A stretch of DNA of 42,375 bases from a virus. Taxonomy: Duplodnaviria; Heunggongvirae; Uroviricota; Caudoviricetes. Location: the IMG/VR virus record IMGVR_UViG_2802429217_000003, one strand, 5' to 3'. Position numbers: made by a program. The first letter of the stretch is position 1; the number at the start of each line of letters is the position of its first letter. Below are positions 9,001-21,000 of this stretch, piece after piece.

Positions 9001-12000
9001 CAGGCCGTTTACCGGAAAGCGCATTTCAGCCACGGCGGATCATCCGGCGATTCTGTCGTAGTGCATTGATTGAAATTAATCGTGCCGGAGCGTTTTGTTC
9101 GGTATCAGTTAAATGTAACGCTGCGAGCGTTACAAGGTGAAAACAATATGGCTTCAAACTGGATAAAGCTCGAAGTTATTACGCCGGATAAACCGGAAAT
9201 ATTCAGGATTGCTGAGATTCTTAATATTGATCCAGATGCCGCATTAGGGAAGGTCATTCGATTCTGGGCATGGGCGGATCAACAAATGATTGATGGTAAC
9301 GCAGAGTGTAACGCTCGAGGCGTTACAAAAAGTGCAATAGACCGTATCACTTTTATGGCTGGTTTTGCTGATGCGTTAATTCAGGTTGGATGGCTGGTCG
9401 AAAGTGATGGAGTGCTTTCACTACCTAACTTTGAGCGTCATAACGGAAAAAGCTCGAAAAAACGGGCGGTTACAAACGAGAGAGTTACAAAAATACGCGA
9501 ACTGAAGCGAAAAGGTAACGCTGCCAGCGTTACACAAACGGATCAAAAAGCGTTACCAGAGGAAGAGGAAGAGGAAGATAAAAATACTGATCTCCCCCTA
9601 AATCCCCCTCGGCAAAAACGAGCGTCTAAAAAATTCGAGCCGGAGGCCATTGCTCTGCCCGACTGGTTGCCAGAAACACTCTGGAATGAGTGGGTCCAGT
9701 TCAGGCAGGCATTGCGAAAACCGATTCGAACGGAGCAGGGCGCTAACGGGGCGATACGGGAACTGGAAAAATTCCGCCAGCAGGGTTTTACCCCTGAGCA
9801 GGTGATTCGACACAGCATCGCCAATGAATACCAGGGCTTGTTCGCGCCGAAAGGTGTTCGGCCTGAGACGTTGCTCCGACAGGTTAACACCGTCTCGTTG
9901 CCGGACAGTGCGATCCCGCCAGGCTTCAGGGGGTAACTGACCATGAAAAATATTGCGACAGGCGGCGTTCTGGAACGTATCCGCAGACTGGCCCCGTCAC
10001 ATGTAACCGCGCCATTCAGGACGGTGGCGGAGTGGCGCGAGTGGCAACTTGCAGAAGGCCAGAAACGTTGCGAGGAGATCAATCGCCAGAATCGTCAGTT
10101 GCGGGTGGAAAAAATTCTGAATCGCTCCGGCATCCAGCCGTTGCACCGCAAATGCTCGTTTTCGAATTACCAGGTGCAGAACGACGGCCAGCGATACGCG
10201 TTGAGCCAGGCGAAATCCATCGCCGATGAACTGATGGTCGGGTGTACAAATTTTGCGTTCAGCGGAAAACCTGGTACCGGAAAAAACCATCTGGCGGCGG
10301 CTATCGGGAATCGCTTGCTGAAAGACGGTCAGACAGTGATTGTGGTTACCGTGGCTGATGTTATGAGTGCTCTACACGCCAGCTATGACGACGGGCAATC
10401 AGGCGAAAAATTTTTGCGGGAACTGTGCGAAGTGGATCTGCTGGTTCTTGATGAAATTGGCATTCAGCGCGAGACAAAAAACGAGCAGGTGGTACTGCAC
10501 CAGATTGTTGATCGCCGGACAGCGTCGATCCGCAGCGTGGGGATGCTGACAAACCTGAACTATGAGGCCATGAAAACATTGCTCGGCGAGAGGATTATGG
10601 ATCGGATGACCATGAACGGCGGGCGATGGGTGAATTTTAACTGGGAGAGCTGGCGCCCGAATGTTGGTCAGCCAGGAATTGAGAAGTAATTTTTACCGGG
10701 AGGAAATTTTAATGGAGACCGTTTTTGACGCACTGAAAGCAATGGGAAAAGCCTCTTCCCAGGAAATGGCAGCACGTCTGGGAATGACCCGGGATGAGGC
10801 GATTAACGAGCTGTGGAAACTGAAGCGTCGTGGGGAAGCTGATAACAAGGGCCCGATGTGGTGGTTGACTCAAACCGACGAAAACGCATCTGTAGCACAG
10901 GCTTCTAAAGTGACAGCGCAAATGCTGATCGAGGCGATTGAACAGCATGGCCCTAAAGCGGCTGATGAACTTGCACTGATATTCAGAATTACTTCCCGCA
11001 GGGTGAACTCATCGCTGGCTATGGCCATCAGCAAAGGTCGTCTGATTCGCGTAAATCAGAACGGTAAATTTCGTTACTGCCTGCCGGACGGTAATTTACC
11101 AGCAGAGCCGAAAGTTGTATCGGTAGTTAAAACACCTGGTAAAGGCTTTCCTCAGCCAGCCGGTGTTGCGTTACCAGTACAGGAAGCGGCAACACAGGAA
11201 GAAATTAAAACAGATACTGTGGGGGACATTGTGCAGTCACTACCATCGTTCACTGAAACGCGAGCCAATGACCTGATTTTACCATCGCTGCAAATGGCAA
11301 ACCGCGAACTGCGCCGGGCGAAAAGTCATGTCCAGAAGTGGGAGCGAGTCTGCGCCGCGCTGCGTGAGCTGAACAAGCACCAGGACATTGTCCGTCAGAT
11401 TGTCGATTCCTCCAGTCGTATTGTGTCGGAAAAGTGATTCCAGGGGAGGGCTTATGGCAAAAGTATTAACACAGGAAGAGCGAGAAAAAATTAAAGGGCA
11501 GATTGTTGATCTCGTACGCCAGAGCGGGCGAGAGACGTTACGACAACTGGAAGCTAAAACAGGGGCAACCAGATATCTGATAAGTATTCTCGCCAAAGAG
11601 CTGGTTTCGAGTGGTGACGTATACAACACTGGCTATGGGTTATTTCCGTCTGAGCAGGCACGTCAAGACTGGCAAAACGCCCGCAAAAAACTCTCGAGGG
11701 CAAAGTCGAAGGAACCGGTTATGGTTGATCCTGACCTTATCTGGTCATTACCAGACGGAGAAATACGCCGCTACGACAGGTGTCAGAACATAATTTGTCG
11801 CGAGTGCCGGAAGAGTGAAGTTATGCAGCGTGTATTAGCATTTTATCAGGGGAATGTTGGTATTTATTGAAGTGACGAGATTAAAGACCACTAATTCATA
11901 TGTGAATTGACAGTTTCATGGCACAGGATACGGCTAGCGTGGTTGTCTGTTTTGTGCCAGGGGCGGACCTTAAGCTTCAGTAATTTGATTAGCACAATCC

Positions 12001-18000: not shown

Positions 18001-21000
18001 TAATTACTGTCATAACATTAAAAAGTAGCGGATGTATTCCTCCGCTACATAACTTATACTCAAGGAGTGATTATATTGAATATTTTCAAAGCCTGTGGGG
18101 GCATCAATGTCCGCTCTTCGCTCAAAGCGGACTAAAATGTTGGCTTGTGTCTGACTCAGCGCATTTAAGGAAGTGGTGGTGGTGACGGGGTGTTGTGTCC
18201 CATTTCCACAGAATAAATCAGAGAAACTATAGCGGCTGTAATGGCAATCTATGGTCTTGCTATTGCTCTTATGGATCACCTTTCTGATTGATTTCATATT
18301 GGCGAGGTAACGGGAGTTAAGTAGAATAGCTGCGGGTGCTTGAGGCTGTCTGCCTCGGGCATGAACACCAAAGGCAGATAGAGAAAAGCCCCAGTTAACA
18401 TTACGCGTCCGGCAAGACGCTTAACATTAATCTGAGGCCACATCTATGCTTTGCATACGTAGATTAGCCTCTTACCGACCAAAAGGTCAAGGAGAAGCAG
18501 GCTATGAAGCAGCAAAAGGCGATGTTAATCGCCCTGATCGTCATCTGTTTAACCGTCGTTGTGACGGCACTGGTAACGAGGAAAGACCTCTGCGAGGTAC
18601 GAATCCGAACCGGCCAGACGGAGGTCGCTGTCTTCACAGCTTACGAACCTGAGGAGTAAGAGACCCGGCGGGGGAGAAATCCCCCGCCACCTCTGATGTG
18701 TCAGGCATCCTCAACGCACCCGTACTTACCCGCTTCGGCGGGTTTTTTGTTGTGGTGGATAAATTAGCTTTTTGTGTACTCTTTTAGCCGTAAGTCTTGA
18801 GGGACTGACTGTTGTAAATAGAATCGTGTTTGCTTAGTTAGCGCGCAGGGAGAAGAGGGATGGACCCTTCAGGGGAACGCTATTAATCTGGAAAATTTCT
18901 ATTTATGGATTTCAAGAAGTTGCGCAAAATTTTTAATAAAGATGGTCTCTATGCTGTGCGCGTTGAAAATGGGGAAATTATTAGTTGTTACTGCATTCAT
19001 TGCTCACGGGCTTTGCAACAGCCTAGTGGGGCTATGTTAATATATCTCTTGAATGGGCATGTGACGGACGGATTTATGTTGCGTGAAGATGAATTTGTCA
19101 CATCATTACGGACATTAAAAGAAATTGGATTAAAAGCTGGCTTTTCTGCTTTTGAAGACGATTGAACTCATCTACAATTCAGCGCAGGGTTGACCCCCTG
19201 CTGAGTAACACCGTGCCACCGGAGAAAGCCGATGGCACATATACAACTGATCAAACATACCTCTTCTGGATTACTGCTCCCGGCAACACCGGAGAGTTGC
19301 GAATTCTTGCATCAAATAAAAATAGGTGAGTGGATACACGCTGATTTTAAGCGCGTTCGTAACTACGCATTTCACAAGCGTTTTTTCAAACTCCTGCAAC
19401 TCGGATTCGATTATTGGACTCCTGTCGGTGGGGCGATCACCTCTCGTGAACGAAAACTTGTGTCCGGTTTCGTTGATTATCTGTGTGACTCGGTCGGCCG
19501 GGAACATACGCCAGCCCTGAGTGATGCCGCAGAACAATATCTGAATACCATTGCGATACGCAGAACCTGTGATACGGCATTGCTAAAGTCATTTGATGCT
19601 TTCCGTGAATGGGTAACTATTGAGGCCGGATTTTACACCGAGCATTTTTATCCGGACGGTAGCCGTGGACGCAGGGCAAGATCTATCGCGTTTGCAAATA
19701 TGGACGATACCGAGTTTCAGCAGGTTTATAAATCCGTACTGAATGTGCTTTGGAACTGGATCCTGTTCCGTAAATTTTCCTCTCCGGAACAATTCGAAAA
19801 TGTTGCTGCGCAGCTGCTGGAGTTTGCGTAATGGTGGATTTGCGTAAAGCGGCTAAAGGCCATATGTGTACAGTCAGAATCCCCGGTTACTGCAATCACA
19901 ATCCTGAAACATCTGTGCTGGCGCACTACAGGCTGGCGGGGACGTGTGGAATGGCGATAAAACCACACGATATGCAGGCAGCGATTGCCTGTAACTCATG
20001 TCACGATCTAATCGATGGGCGGGTAAAAACCAGCGATTACACCAAAGAAGAATTGCACCTGATGCATGCAGAAGGTGTTTTTCGCACGCAAGAAATCTGG
20101 AGAAATGAGGGATATTTATGATTTACCCAACAAATATCGGAAAAAGCGGGGAACATCTCCGTCTCGCAACACTGGAAAGTGTGTGGATTCAGGGAAAGTT
20201 ACGCATGTGGGGACGCTGGTCGTATATTGGCTGCGGCAGGTCAGGGAATATGTTCAACCAGTTGCTGGTGTCAAAAAAAATAACACAAACAGCTATCAAT
20301 GAAGCCTTGCGCAAAATGAAAAAAGCGGGGATTGATAAACCTGAACTGGAGGAATTTTTTCGGGAGCTGATTAACGGTAAGCAGAAAAGCTGGCTATCCC
20401 ACTGTACTGATGCAGAGGCGTTATGCATTGATCGGGTGATTAGTGAAGTGTTGGCAGAGCATCCAGGATTGATTCACGTACTCCGACAACGGTATGAAGG
20501 ACGGGGGATGACAAAGCGCAAAATGGCTCAATTGCTAAATAACGCACATCCAGAGTGGAGTTTCAGTACATGCGAAAAGCGAATTGCTAATTGGTTAGCT
20601 GTTGCTGAGTATTCTTTATACATTCCCATGCGAGTATCATTTGCTCAGAAAATAGCTTGATTTTTTACGCAAAAACTGCTCTAATTCTGATACGCTTCGC
20701 AAAGCTGTATCGCGAGGTGGATAAAGAAAATCAAATTTAAAAGAACCCGCCACCGAGCGGGTTTTTTTATCCATAAATATAGAATGAATACTAGAAATTA
20801 ACAATTTCTATTTTCTTATGCTGGCTTATTCTGTTGAATGATTCGTGAATCAACTCAGGGATTTTTATCTGATTGAGGTGTTTCATGTTTCGGCATTGTT
20901 AGCTTTTGTAGGCTTTTCCATATATTTATAGATAATTAAACTGGTGCAGTAATTCACCTGAGAAGTTTGCAATCCTCTAATTAACCTTTTTATTTGTATT

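Follow-up and report, generated by a model that had tools for sequence, protein, structure and literature searches.

The 42,375-nt stretch of DNA analysed here (the window; IMG/VR record IMGVR_UViG_2802429217_000003, Caudoviricetes) is 99.8% identical to a Rac-type prophage at ttcA in Escherichia coli strain H2. Between the last gene of its replication module, lygF, and a hok/sok module it harbors a low-GC island of two cargo genes, whose borders are copies of one 24-nt palindrome, GTCCGCT-N10-AGCGGAC (T1 on the left, T2 on the right; Table 1). In strain H2 the first part of the prophage reads intR, xisR, ralR, recT, recE, kilR, sieB, repressor/cro, ydaT/U/V, DUF1627 and DUF977 (lygF), and the island is followed by hokD, DUF1367, DUF1364, Q, the lysis genes and trkG, with recE and recT annotated in the same prophage. 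The stretch 11856-11953 lies behind DUF977 genes in 930 E. coli genomes at ~84% identity; on the right, 18134-18226 is common to only 22 genomes and 18227-18316 to ~1,000. The right anchor, rightly named as a hok/sok-type module in an earlier reading of this DNA (the original prediction), has all parts of this type I toxin-antitoxin system: a Hok/Gef gene (hok, 18504-18659; Pfam HOK_GEF, E=1.2e-23), an overlapping mok open reading frame (ORF, 18446-18652) and a Sok RNA region (18334-18509; Rfam RF01794, 105 bits vs a gathering score of 59, E=8e-24).

Table 1. Features of the lygF-to-hok interval, in window coordinates
Feature	Position	Strand	Basis
lygF (DUF977, Ren-like), last replication-module backbone gene, left anchor of the slot	11454..11870	+	Pfam DUF977 E=1.4e-29; strain H2 RefSeq
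Conserved backbone spacer, lygF to left palindrome	11871..11944	.	aligned across slot variants
T1, left cargo border, degenerate (GTCTGTT ttgtgccagg GGCGGAC, 3 stem mismatches)	11945..11968	+	pattern scan and homology ends
Cassette 1 gene, 505-aa protein	12240..13757	+	ORF open from GTG 12153
5' half of the terminal T2 of cassette 1 (TTCTGCT tttc), cut by IS30	13879..13889	+	end of homology to E. coli island L008
IS30-family element, dead	13890..15097	-	Pfam; strain H2 RefSeq 'frameshifted; internal stop'
3' half of the opening T1 of cassette 2 (...ccgga AGCGGTC)	15098..15108	+	Pantoea ICE alignment
Leader, presumed promoter region of the STAND gene	15109..15369	+	conserved with the Pantoea ICE copy
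Cassette 2 gene, 877-aa Mrr/nSTAND1 protein	15370..18003	+	ORF open from 15307
T2, right cargo border, perfect (GTCCGCT cttcgctcaa AGCGGAC)	18109..18132	+	pattern scan and homology ends
Right backbone border of the slot	18133..18316	.	
hok/sok module, right anchor of the slot	18334..18659	+	Rfam, Pfam; hokD annotated in strain H2

A fall in guanine-plus-cytosine (GC) content from about 11.9 to 18.3 kb had been noticed in the original prediction, and windowed GC bears it out. The refined block 11954-18133 has a GC content of 0.387 (0.388 over 11871-18300), ~4.6 standard deviations under the mean of 477 equal-sized windows outside the island (mean 0.4625, standard deviation 0.016, minimum 0.4215). 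Removal of the IS30 remnant, which alone has 0.467, lowers the block to 0.367. The left backbone and replication module (8500-11953) have 0.504 and the right flank from hok to Q (18134-20660) 0.464, and GC at third codon positions (GC3) is 0.30 in both cargo genes vs 0.44-0.62 in the flanking prophage genes. The break in GC and GC3 marks the block as foreign in origin. The drop is the largest in the window, though not unique at the 2-kb scale, where a second AT-rich patch at ~20.4-22.7 kb reaches ~0.36, almost equal to the island. This patch (~20400-22700) lies downstream of Q, where the strain H2 annotation shows tRNA-Thr, tRNA-Gly and one hypothetical gene, and no T1/T2 palindromes occur in it. 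Homology to reference Rac phages (MN652886, Rac-SA53) breaks off at 11855 and picks up again at 18317, and wider comparison places the cargo junctions at ~11954-11968 and ~18117-18133; the earlier island coordinates, 11871-18300, were accurate to ~100-170 bp.

The joints were mapped by a three-way comparison of the window, the copies of the block in CP4-like islands and plasmids, and the Rac slot of strain S40, which holds different cargo. On the T1 side, the CP4-like island becomes homologous to the window at 11954 and the S40 slot border stays so up to ~11968; on the T2 side, the CP4-like island and IncF plasmids are homologous up to 18133 and the S40 slot border from ~18117 onward. Both recombination joints lie inside the T1 and T2 palindromes. 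The original prediction, which meant the island to be delimited by alignment with Rac-like prophages, had not mentioned these palindromes. At up to 3 stem mismatches these two copies are the only ones in the 42-kb window, both at the borders and in the order T1>...T2>. A reversed-sequence control gave zero matches, and with a loop filter reversed and shuffled controls gave 0-2 matches per 1.15 Mb. The T2 at 18109 has 0 mismatches, and the chance expectation is 0.07 per window at ≤2 mismatches.

A consensus of the element was drawn from 214 unique copies, 108 of T1 and 106 of T2. T1 carries a GTGCCA and T2 a TCGCTC hexaloop; the T2 loop, when reverse-complemented, matches the T1 loop except at two central positions, and T2 may be regarded as approximately an inverted T1 subtype. 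The flanks are conserved as T1-RTT and AAY-T2. As single-stranded DNA (ssDNA), T2 is predicted to form a hairpin of -7.2 kcal/mol (z=-3.5), and the T1 at 11945 lacks a stable fold. For an intact T2-T1 doublet, folding prefers two separate 9-bp hairpins, and a single long T2:T1 hairpin was rejected. The hairpin form is a prediction from thermodynamics only. Because the stems show almost no compensatory changes, the element is conserved as sequence, and a covariation-supported RNA structure was rejected for the same lack. The palindromes match no family in an Rfam scan, in which sok is the only match. No T-run follows the stem, and the palindromes are therefore not intrinsic terminators.

The interior of the island repeats the arrangement seen at its borders. 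The IS30-family element that the original prediction had recognised is present, but as a frameshifted, dead copy. It has terminal inverted repeats (GCTGTGAGTT.../...AACTCACAGC), a transposase split into ORFs at 14575-15081 (HTH_38) and 13952-14548 (rve), and ~93% identity to IS30-family elements on plasmids of Pantoea and Enterobacter. On its left, homology to an E. coli island that carries gene 1 only (L008) stops inside the T2 of that island (TTCCGCT cctcgctcat ATCGGAC). On its right, 15096-15420 aligns at 82% to positions 7728-8051 of a Pantoea stewartii integrative and conjugative element (ICE, L104), in which an intact T1 (7717-7740) and a 260-nt leader lie upstream of a 95%-identical STAND gene. 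Because the insertion sequence (IS) is flanked by a 5' T2 half on one side and a 3' T1 half on the other, the ancestral order was T1-gene 1-T2 followed by T1-STAND-T2, that is, two single-gene cassettes. The IS30 element would have inserted in the palindromic T2/T1 junction between them and decayed later. Members of four IS families lie beside or inside T1/T2 at different loci (L009 8584-9658, IS110; L002 16155-17377, IS481; L008 7301-9015, IS66; window 13879-15108, IS30), which suggests that the palindromes, or the junctions marked by them, are preferred IS targets.

The 6,180-bp stretch 11954-18133 is found at 98.7% identity in ~27 other complete E. coli genomes, with the same frameshifted IS30. 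At least 80% of the block is present in 34 of 5,426 complete E. coli genomes, in Rac in ~7 of them, which does not agree with conserved core genes, the case that the original prediction had named as its refutation. The three copies whose context was examined lie in CP4-like integrative islands, together with cbtA/cbeA, yeeS, antirestriction, DUF932, GTPase, H-NS and dGTPase genes. Since the same dead IS30 occurs in both contexts, the fused 6.18-kb block moved whole, after the death of the IS, between the CP4-like island and the Rac slot, in either direction. In the CP4-like islands the T1/T2 cassette region, including the block, lies between two genes of the 'inovirus Gp2 family' (YagK/YfjJ), at 7664-8395 and 18452-19018 in L002 and at 5273-6004 and 13186-13752 in L008. 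The family, which takes its name from a rolling-circle initiator nickase, may supply a candidate enzyme acting on the hairpins, or its position may be a coincidence.

An IS30-family element in the middle of the block raises the question of whether the IS itself mobilised it, by composite or one-ended transposition. This is highly improbable. There is a single copy, frameshifted and with an internal stop, and its defects are the same in both contexts; the block ends carry T1/T2 and no IS30 inverted repeats, and neither such repeats nor target duplications are found at 11954 or 18133. The block has neither two IS copies nor IS ends with a target duplication at its borders, as a composite transposon would, and IS30-mediated mobilisation was rejected on these grounds. 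It is also improbable, if somewhat less so, that the two cargo genes form one defence system of a membrane effector or sensor and an NLR-like nuclease. They are adjacent, on the same strand, equal in GC3 (0.30) and found together in 34 E. coli genomes, but in most contexts each occurs without the other, each cassette has its own T1/T2 pair with the dead IS30 between them, and across phyla the STAND proteins share a single full-length architecture while their genes lack a conserved neighbour. A two-gene system is unsupported by this distribution.

The cassette 1 protein is the membrane HExxH protein of the original prediction, and its motif is indeed conserved. The longer ORF from 12153 adds 29 residues, predicted to be disordered. 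The protein has three N-terminal transmembrane helices and, in its AlphaFold2 (AF2) model (predicted local distance difference test, pLDDT, 80.8), an all-alpha solenoid. The motif H346-E-G-I-H350-Q-G-L-Q-D-H356 (numbering from 12153) recurs as a nearly invariant HEGIHxGLxDH in 38 homologues from gamma- and beta-proteobacteria, with H346 and E347 at least 90% conserved and G348, H350, Q351, D355 and H356 invariant. The protein has the HExxH motif of zincin metallopeptidases, but no zincin fold is seen in the model, whose fold matches are generic helical-repeat proteins only, and no peptidase family is matched. Because the model is an all-alpha solenoid, HExxH alone does not make the protein a metalloprotease, and that reading is unsupported. 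Pfam, PADLOC, NCBIfam and PDB sequences give no match to it. The gene occurs without the STAND gene in island L008, of the same type (92%), in ~110-kb Klebsiella phage-plasmids (75%) and in an integrase-bounded island of Pseudomonas aeruginosa. This context suggests an accessory, defence or exclusion role.

The cassette 2 protein is the nuclease-STAND fusion that had been predicted, with Pfam matches to Mrr_cat (28.2 bits, cut-off 21) and nSTAND1 (32.9 bits, cut-off 27.1). A PD-(D/E)xK nuclease of the Mrr type at the N-terminus is followed by an nSTAND1 P-loop NTPase and by a C-terminal stretch of ~430 residues, which is helical with winged-helix-like segments, modelled at pLDDT 54-92 and without a Pfam match to tetratricopeptide repeats (TPR). 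D49, E64-x-K66, the Walker A motif G284-V-G-K-S-S289 and the Walker B motif D360-Q-F-E363 do not vary among 42 homologues drawn from several phyla. The AF2 model (pLDDT 83.3; predicted template modelling score, pTM, 0.72) finds EcAvs4 as its best fold match in the PDB (8dgf, E=4.9e-9), followed by EfAvs5 and then by ORC/Cdc6-type AAA+ proteins. The protein matches no PADLOC model (E<=0.01), no NCBIfam family and no PDB chain (phmmer or profile); it belongs to none of the families modelled in PADLOC 2.0 (Avs1-5, bNACHT, PD-Lambda-4 and others), Avs7-24 lying outside that comparison. The family has 293 detected homologues with a single ~877-residue architecture and 42-48% identity, in hosts that include Sporomusa, Gallicola, a Planctomycetaceae bacterium and a Pyrinomonadaceae bacterium. 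In Vibrio, Sporomusa, the Pantoea ICE and IncF plasmids the gene stands alone, with no conserved partner. The plasmid copies are 5'-truncated by IS3 and internally broken, and were rejected as the native form. The leader travels with the gene, at 97.8% identity to the CP4-like island copies. In a promoter and terminator scan, matches were no more than expected by chance, in this leader too.

Like the Avs proteins (Avs1-5, Avs7-24), the protein joins a nuclease at its N-terminus, of the Mrr type found in Avs4, to a STAND NTPase whose Walker A and B motifs are intact and to a C-terminal region of more than 400 residues, and is found on mobile elements. Unlike Avs4, it is half the size, has no detected TPR repeats and its C-terminus is conserved. 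Together with the fold match, the genomic context and the preservation of the catalytic residues, this architecture slightly favours an Avs-like action, in which ligand-induced, NTP-dependent oligomerisation activates the predicted Mrr nuclease. An infection-derived ligand would bind the C-terminal region, NTP-dependent oligomerisation would follow, and the clustered PD-(D/E)xK domains would cut DNA and abort the infection. STAND clades that bear nuclease effectors count as defence-associated (PMC13581612), and the protein is of a known kind, though itself uncharacterised. The family is conserved over its full length in distant phyla, and its C-terminal region, unusually well conserved, has invariant residues throughout, such as F456-Q-G-F-P-W-L463 and Y554-D-T-Y-N-D-V560 (alignment A1); this argues for a conserved ligand, which may not be a protein.

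The position occupied by the island varies widely between prophages. A set of 80 IMG/VR loci, retrieved with LygF alone, shows at least 25 size classes for the distance from lygF to hok; the smallest distance is 1,088 bp and the largest more than 10 kb, and the commonest class is the shortest (1,088-1,089 bp). Slot GC is 0.34-0.49 vs 0.47-0.53 in the flanks. The slot proteins form 93 clusters, of which 52 representatives were classified. Defence-type cargo comprises an anti-phage dGTPase, an NgoMIV-type restriction-modification pair (type II restriction endonuclease and methyltransferase), PD-Lambda-2_C, mad2 and AIPR, and other methylases, Beta_protein, DUF5677 and QueH occur as well. Further contents are BCCT and MFS transporters, LysR, ChaC and the small lambdoid ORFs DUF551, Ead/Ea22 and KilA-N. 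Annotated examples are strains S40 (dGTPase, MBL-fold and DUF4145 proteins), F9792 (a metabolic operon) and IPCEC31. This is a fixed position with many contents, known defence systems among them, as in prophage accessory and defence hotspots, and it supports a reading of the interval as foreign, non-core cargo in an accessory slot that varies among Rac/Qin-like lambdoid prophages. The original prediction was right about the slot and its alternative contents in other strains, and right in part about defence-type cargo: dGTPase, restriction-modification, PD-Lambda-2_C and AIPR genes are there, but not exclusively, since transporters and small phage ORFs share the position. It erred on K-12, whose Rac was thought to carry different genes here; in MG1655 a truncated ydaW abuts rzpR/rzoR, and a deletion takes in lygF and hok with the slot between them, Q and most lysis genes, which makes this strain a poor comparator. 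The island as such is an ordinary, well-resolved instance of a prophage hotspot.

The palindromes recur, in the same arrangement, on other elements. A scan of IMG/VR for the exact element gave at least 120 loci, and the counts in this paragraph are, unless another source is named, among the matches listed. T1..T2 brackets number at least 72 consecutive pairs, 531-5,428 bp apart, T2-T1 doublets at least 24 pairs, 39-43 nt apart, and other combinations are few. In 61 of 64 unique brackets, GC is below that of the surroundings (median 0.392 vs 0.492), and the median length of these 64 is 1,441 bp. The bracketed cargo amounts to at least 77 protein families. It includes the defence systems PD-T7-1, PD-T7-5, DRT (UG17, RT-SLATT), ThsB and a Pycsar cyclase with its TIR effector, further PDC-S06/S33/S35/S39, NsnA, AAA_13, SIR2, GmrSD, HEPN, adenosine deaminase and RelA/SpoT proteins, and some transporters and regulators. 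Cassette genes point in the same direction as the palindromes in at least 71 cases and in the opposite direction in at least 48. The flanking backbones belong to two or more unrelated kinds. Lambdoid flanks comprise Ren-like/LygF genes (at least 35 loci), O-like replication proteins and CII-like proteins, the PHROG 'Ren-like exclusion protein' family being the commonest neighbour; P2-like flanks comprise tail sheath (at least 16 loci) and tail-fibre assembly genes (at least 12). In the Pantoea ICE a T2-18 nt-T1 doublet stands between all cargo genes, whichever their strand, and the arrangement T1-cargo-T2-(~18 nt)-T1-cargo-T2 is also found in CP4-like islands and in the Rac/Qin slots of other strains. 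Of 5,426 E. coli genomes, 2,489 carry the doublet, with 1-7 copies each and always in unannotated intergenic DNA, and all the E. coli copies examined lie in mobile-element contexts or cargo regions. Lambdoid and P2-like phages, islands, plasmids and an ICE have this grammar in common, around low-GC, defence-rich cargo. Literature searches by sequence string and by concept found no description of the element, though work of 2004 on site-specific recombination at P2 hotspots may hold part of one; as far as searched, the palindrome-bounded cassette grammar is undescribed.

Taken together, the locus is best read as a cargo replacement in the post-replication 'ren position' of the prophage: two cassettes with an IS30 element at their junction, one of them coding for an Avs-like STAND protein, exchanged by a double crossover inside T1 and T2 (probability roughly 0.68). 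The arrival of the island would be that double crossover, with both joints inside T1/T2 copies. The palindromes would act as portable junction sequences shared among enterobacterial mobile elements, and cassettes would be swapped by short-homology recombination, perhaps aided by the prophage's own RecE/RecT, proteins that reportedly recombine short, diverged homologies. For the specific proposal that T1/T2 serve as portable short homologies for such replacement, the chances seem about even. Several points weigh against this reading. The homology shared at each joint is only ~15-25 bp, short for RecA, and a part of RecET in the swap would be hypothetical. The Rac T1 is degenerate, with 3 mismatches and no stable fold. 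Compensatory stem changes among the 214 copies are absent or almost so, and GT-top vs AC-top counts are balanced. The 24-mer and its loops are conserved as far as the Alphaproteobacteria, a depth that would fit recognition by a dedicated protein better than passive homology. For the STAND component, the silence of PADLOC and NCBIfam counts on the same side, and the conserved C-terminus is atypical of Avs sensors, which track fast-evolving phage proteins.

This conservation leads to another explanation, in which T1 and T2 are recognition sites of a dedicated mobilisation enzyme, either an integron-like tyrosine recombinase or an HUH/Y1 nuclease of the RAYT, IS200/IS605 or Gp2 kind, and the island was inserted by site-specific exchange. 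The whole element, hexaloops included, is conserved from E. coli phages to Pseudolabrys and Bradyrhizobium, the grammar is strict with a fixed ~18-nt doublet spacing, T1 and T2 are equal in number (108 vs 106) and their RTT/AAY flanks are conserved. IS elements accumulate at them, the CP4-like cassette region is flanked by the two Gp2-family genes, and cassette genes lie in both orientations, as in integron-like arrays. The likeness to integron cassettes extends to promoterless-looking single-gene units, to imperfectly symmetric separators of ~66 nt (T2-18 nt-T1), comparable to attC, and to defence-rich, highly diverse cargo. Against such an enzyme, no recombinase or transposase family recurs beside the palindromes in 120 genome loci, the strain H2 annotation lists only intR and xisR as recombination genes, with no IntI, and no empty site or circular intermediate was seen. 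Neither IntI with attI nor attC core sites (RYYYAAC/GTTRRRY) occur, the consensus of the 214 copies showing only the RTT/AAY flank, and there is no GTAG head as in repetitive extragenic palindromic (REP) sequences. Unlike attC sites, the elements are conserved in sequence and not in structure alone, and the array ends are half-elements, a lone T1 on the left and a lone T2 on the right, a misfit with attC topology. That an undescribed cassette-exchange system, integron-like or HUH-type, uses T1/T2 as its cis-acting sites is unlikely, though a reading of some weight. If true, the 24-nt palindrome in its two orientations would define mobile gene cassettes, which an enzyme would carry from one element of Enterobacterales to another, be it a lambdoid or P2-like phage, a satellite, an ICE, a CP4-like island or a plasmid, and related copies would populate alphaproteobacterial chromosomes; such a system would explain at the molecular level how defence systems are swapped so rapidly in phage hotspots.

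The alphaproteobacterial copies bear on a third explanation. The identical 24-mer is frequent between chromosomal genes of Pseudolabrys, Xanthobacteraceae and Bradyrhizobium, often in doublets and several per contig in metagenome-assembled genomes (MAGs). In L107-L226 (e.g., L125, L147, L170, L212) it has the loops AAGTGCCAAT and TTGTGCCAAT and is often preceded by ...AAAGCGGAC ATGTGCAGYGCAC to form doublets; the copies adjoin ABC binding protein, TctC, LysR and GGDEF/EAL genes, a behaviour similar to that of REP sequences and bacterial interspersed mosaic elements (BIMEs). The doublets could then be selfish repeats similar to REP doublets forming hairpins (REPINs) or to miniature inverted-repeat transposable elements (MITEs), or insulator- or terminator-like elements of intergenic AT-rich DNA, and bystanders to cargo movement. 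Besides the scattered alphaproteobacterial copies between ordinary chromosomal genes, the stable small ssDNA hairpins predicted for the element and its intergenic, unannotated location in 2,489 of 5,426 E. coli genomes fit this idea. Yet both island joints fall inside the elements with two different partners compared per side, and a lone T1 and a lone T2 stand exactly at the slot borders, where doublet insertion would leave whole doublets. E. coli genomes hold only 1-7 copies, those seen being in mobile-element contexts, and the lack of a T-run speaks against intrinsic terminators. The bystander explanation is more doubtful than that of a dedicated enzyme. REP, BIME and REPIN sequences are likewise short extragenic palindromes, often doublets and of high copy number in some genomes, as in the alphaproteobacterial MAGs, but the present stem starts with GTCC instead of a 5' GTAG head, and no REP-associated tyrosine transposase (RAYT) lies nearby, so that the REP/REPIN-RAYT pair is not found here. 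REP families are usually species-specific. In contrast, the same 24-mer occurs across classes of Proteobacteria.

The reading as double-crossover replacement at shared palindromes can be compared with other systems of cargo exchange. At the P2 Z/fun and tin-old and the P4 hotspots, defence systems are rapidly swapped, and cos-proximal or homologous recombination has been proposed (PMC9122126, PMC13586616); the words palindrome, hairpin, stem-loop and inverted repeat are absent from both papers. These hotspots resemble the present slot in their fixed backbone position, their swapped low-GC, defence-rich cargo and the presence of the same systems in unrelated islands, but here the backbone is lambdoid (Rac/Qin) and the position follows the replication genes and precedes hok/sok and Q. 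Phage P2 itself (L347, AF063097) has a T1-type copy, GTCCACT ctgtgccaaa AGCGGAC, at 15335-15358, in the stretch from gene G (tail-fibre assembly) to fun(Z), which is the left edge of Z/fun; no T2 partner was found on the other side of Z/fun. Lambdoid morons are defined by their own promoter and a factor-independent terminator (the concept of Hendrix and Juhala). Like morons and the nin-ren mosaicism, the island places genes of deviant composition between backbone genes, downstream of the replication genes; unlike them, its borders are a conserved palindrome without a T-run, shared with ICEs, plasmids and P2-like phages. T4-type phages reportedly carry promoter-early stem-loop (PeSL) cassettes that flank accessory ORFs, for which Arbiol et al. 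are said to have proposed, in 2010, modular shuffling by short homology. The likeness lies in repeated short regulatory or stem-loop sequences around small accessory ORFs in hyperplastic regions. PeSL differ in sequence and are confined to phages, virulent and T4-like, whereas T1/T2 are shared with ICEs, plasmids and chromosomal islands.

Defence systems are exchanged very fast in prophage and satellite hotspots. A short, searchable sequence at both joints makes the mechanism of this exchange directly testable and gives a defined recombination substrate. The T1..T2 brackets offer a handle for delimiting cassettes and possibly a filter for new defence genes. The 877-residue Mrr-STAND family, compact, widespread across phyla and absent from PADLOC 2.0, is a candidate Avs-like sensor.

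The backbone around the slot shows further small changes. At the right border, 18198-18227, a deletion of 105 bp is apparent relative to strain H2. In strain H2 and many Qin/Rac-like prophages these 105 bp are kept just upstream of hok/sok (compare L001 19199-19332), where they supply the ribosome-binding site and GTG start of a hydrophobic ORF of ~29 codons, MLVLKCALAIAAVMAIYCLAVVLMDRLSD; in the window this start is lost. In a sister Rac prophage (L007, strain KMi012; 9001-9981), an IS1 insertion/deletion has removed everything from just after base 202 of the block to the tape-measure gene, which shows ongoing decay of this Rac lineage. H109, which seemed an independent variant with the first 202 bp only, was rejected as such: it derives from the same Rac lineage through an IS1-mediated deletion.

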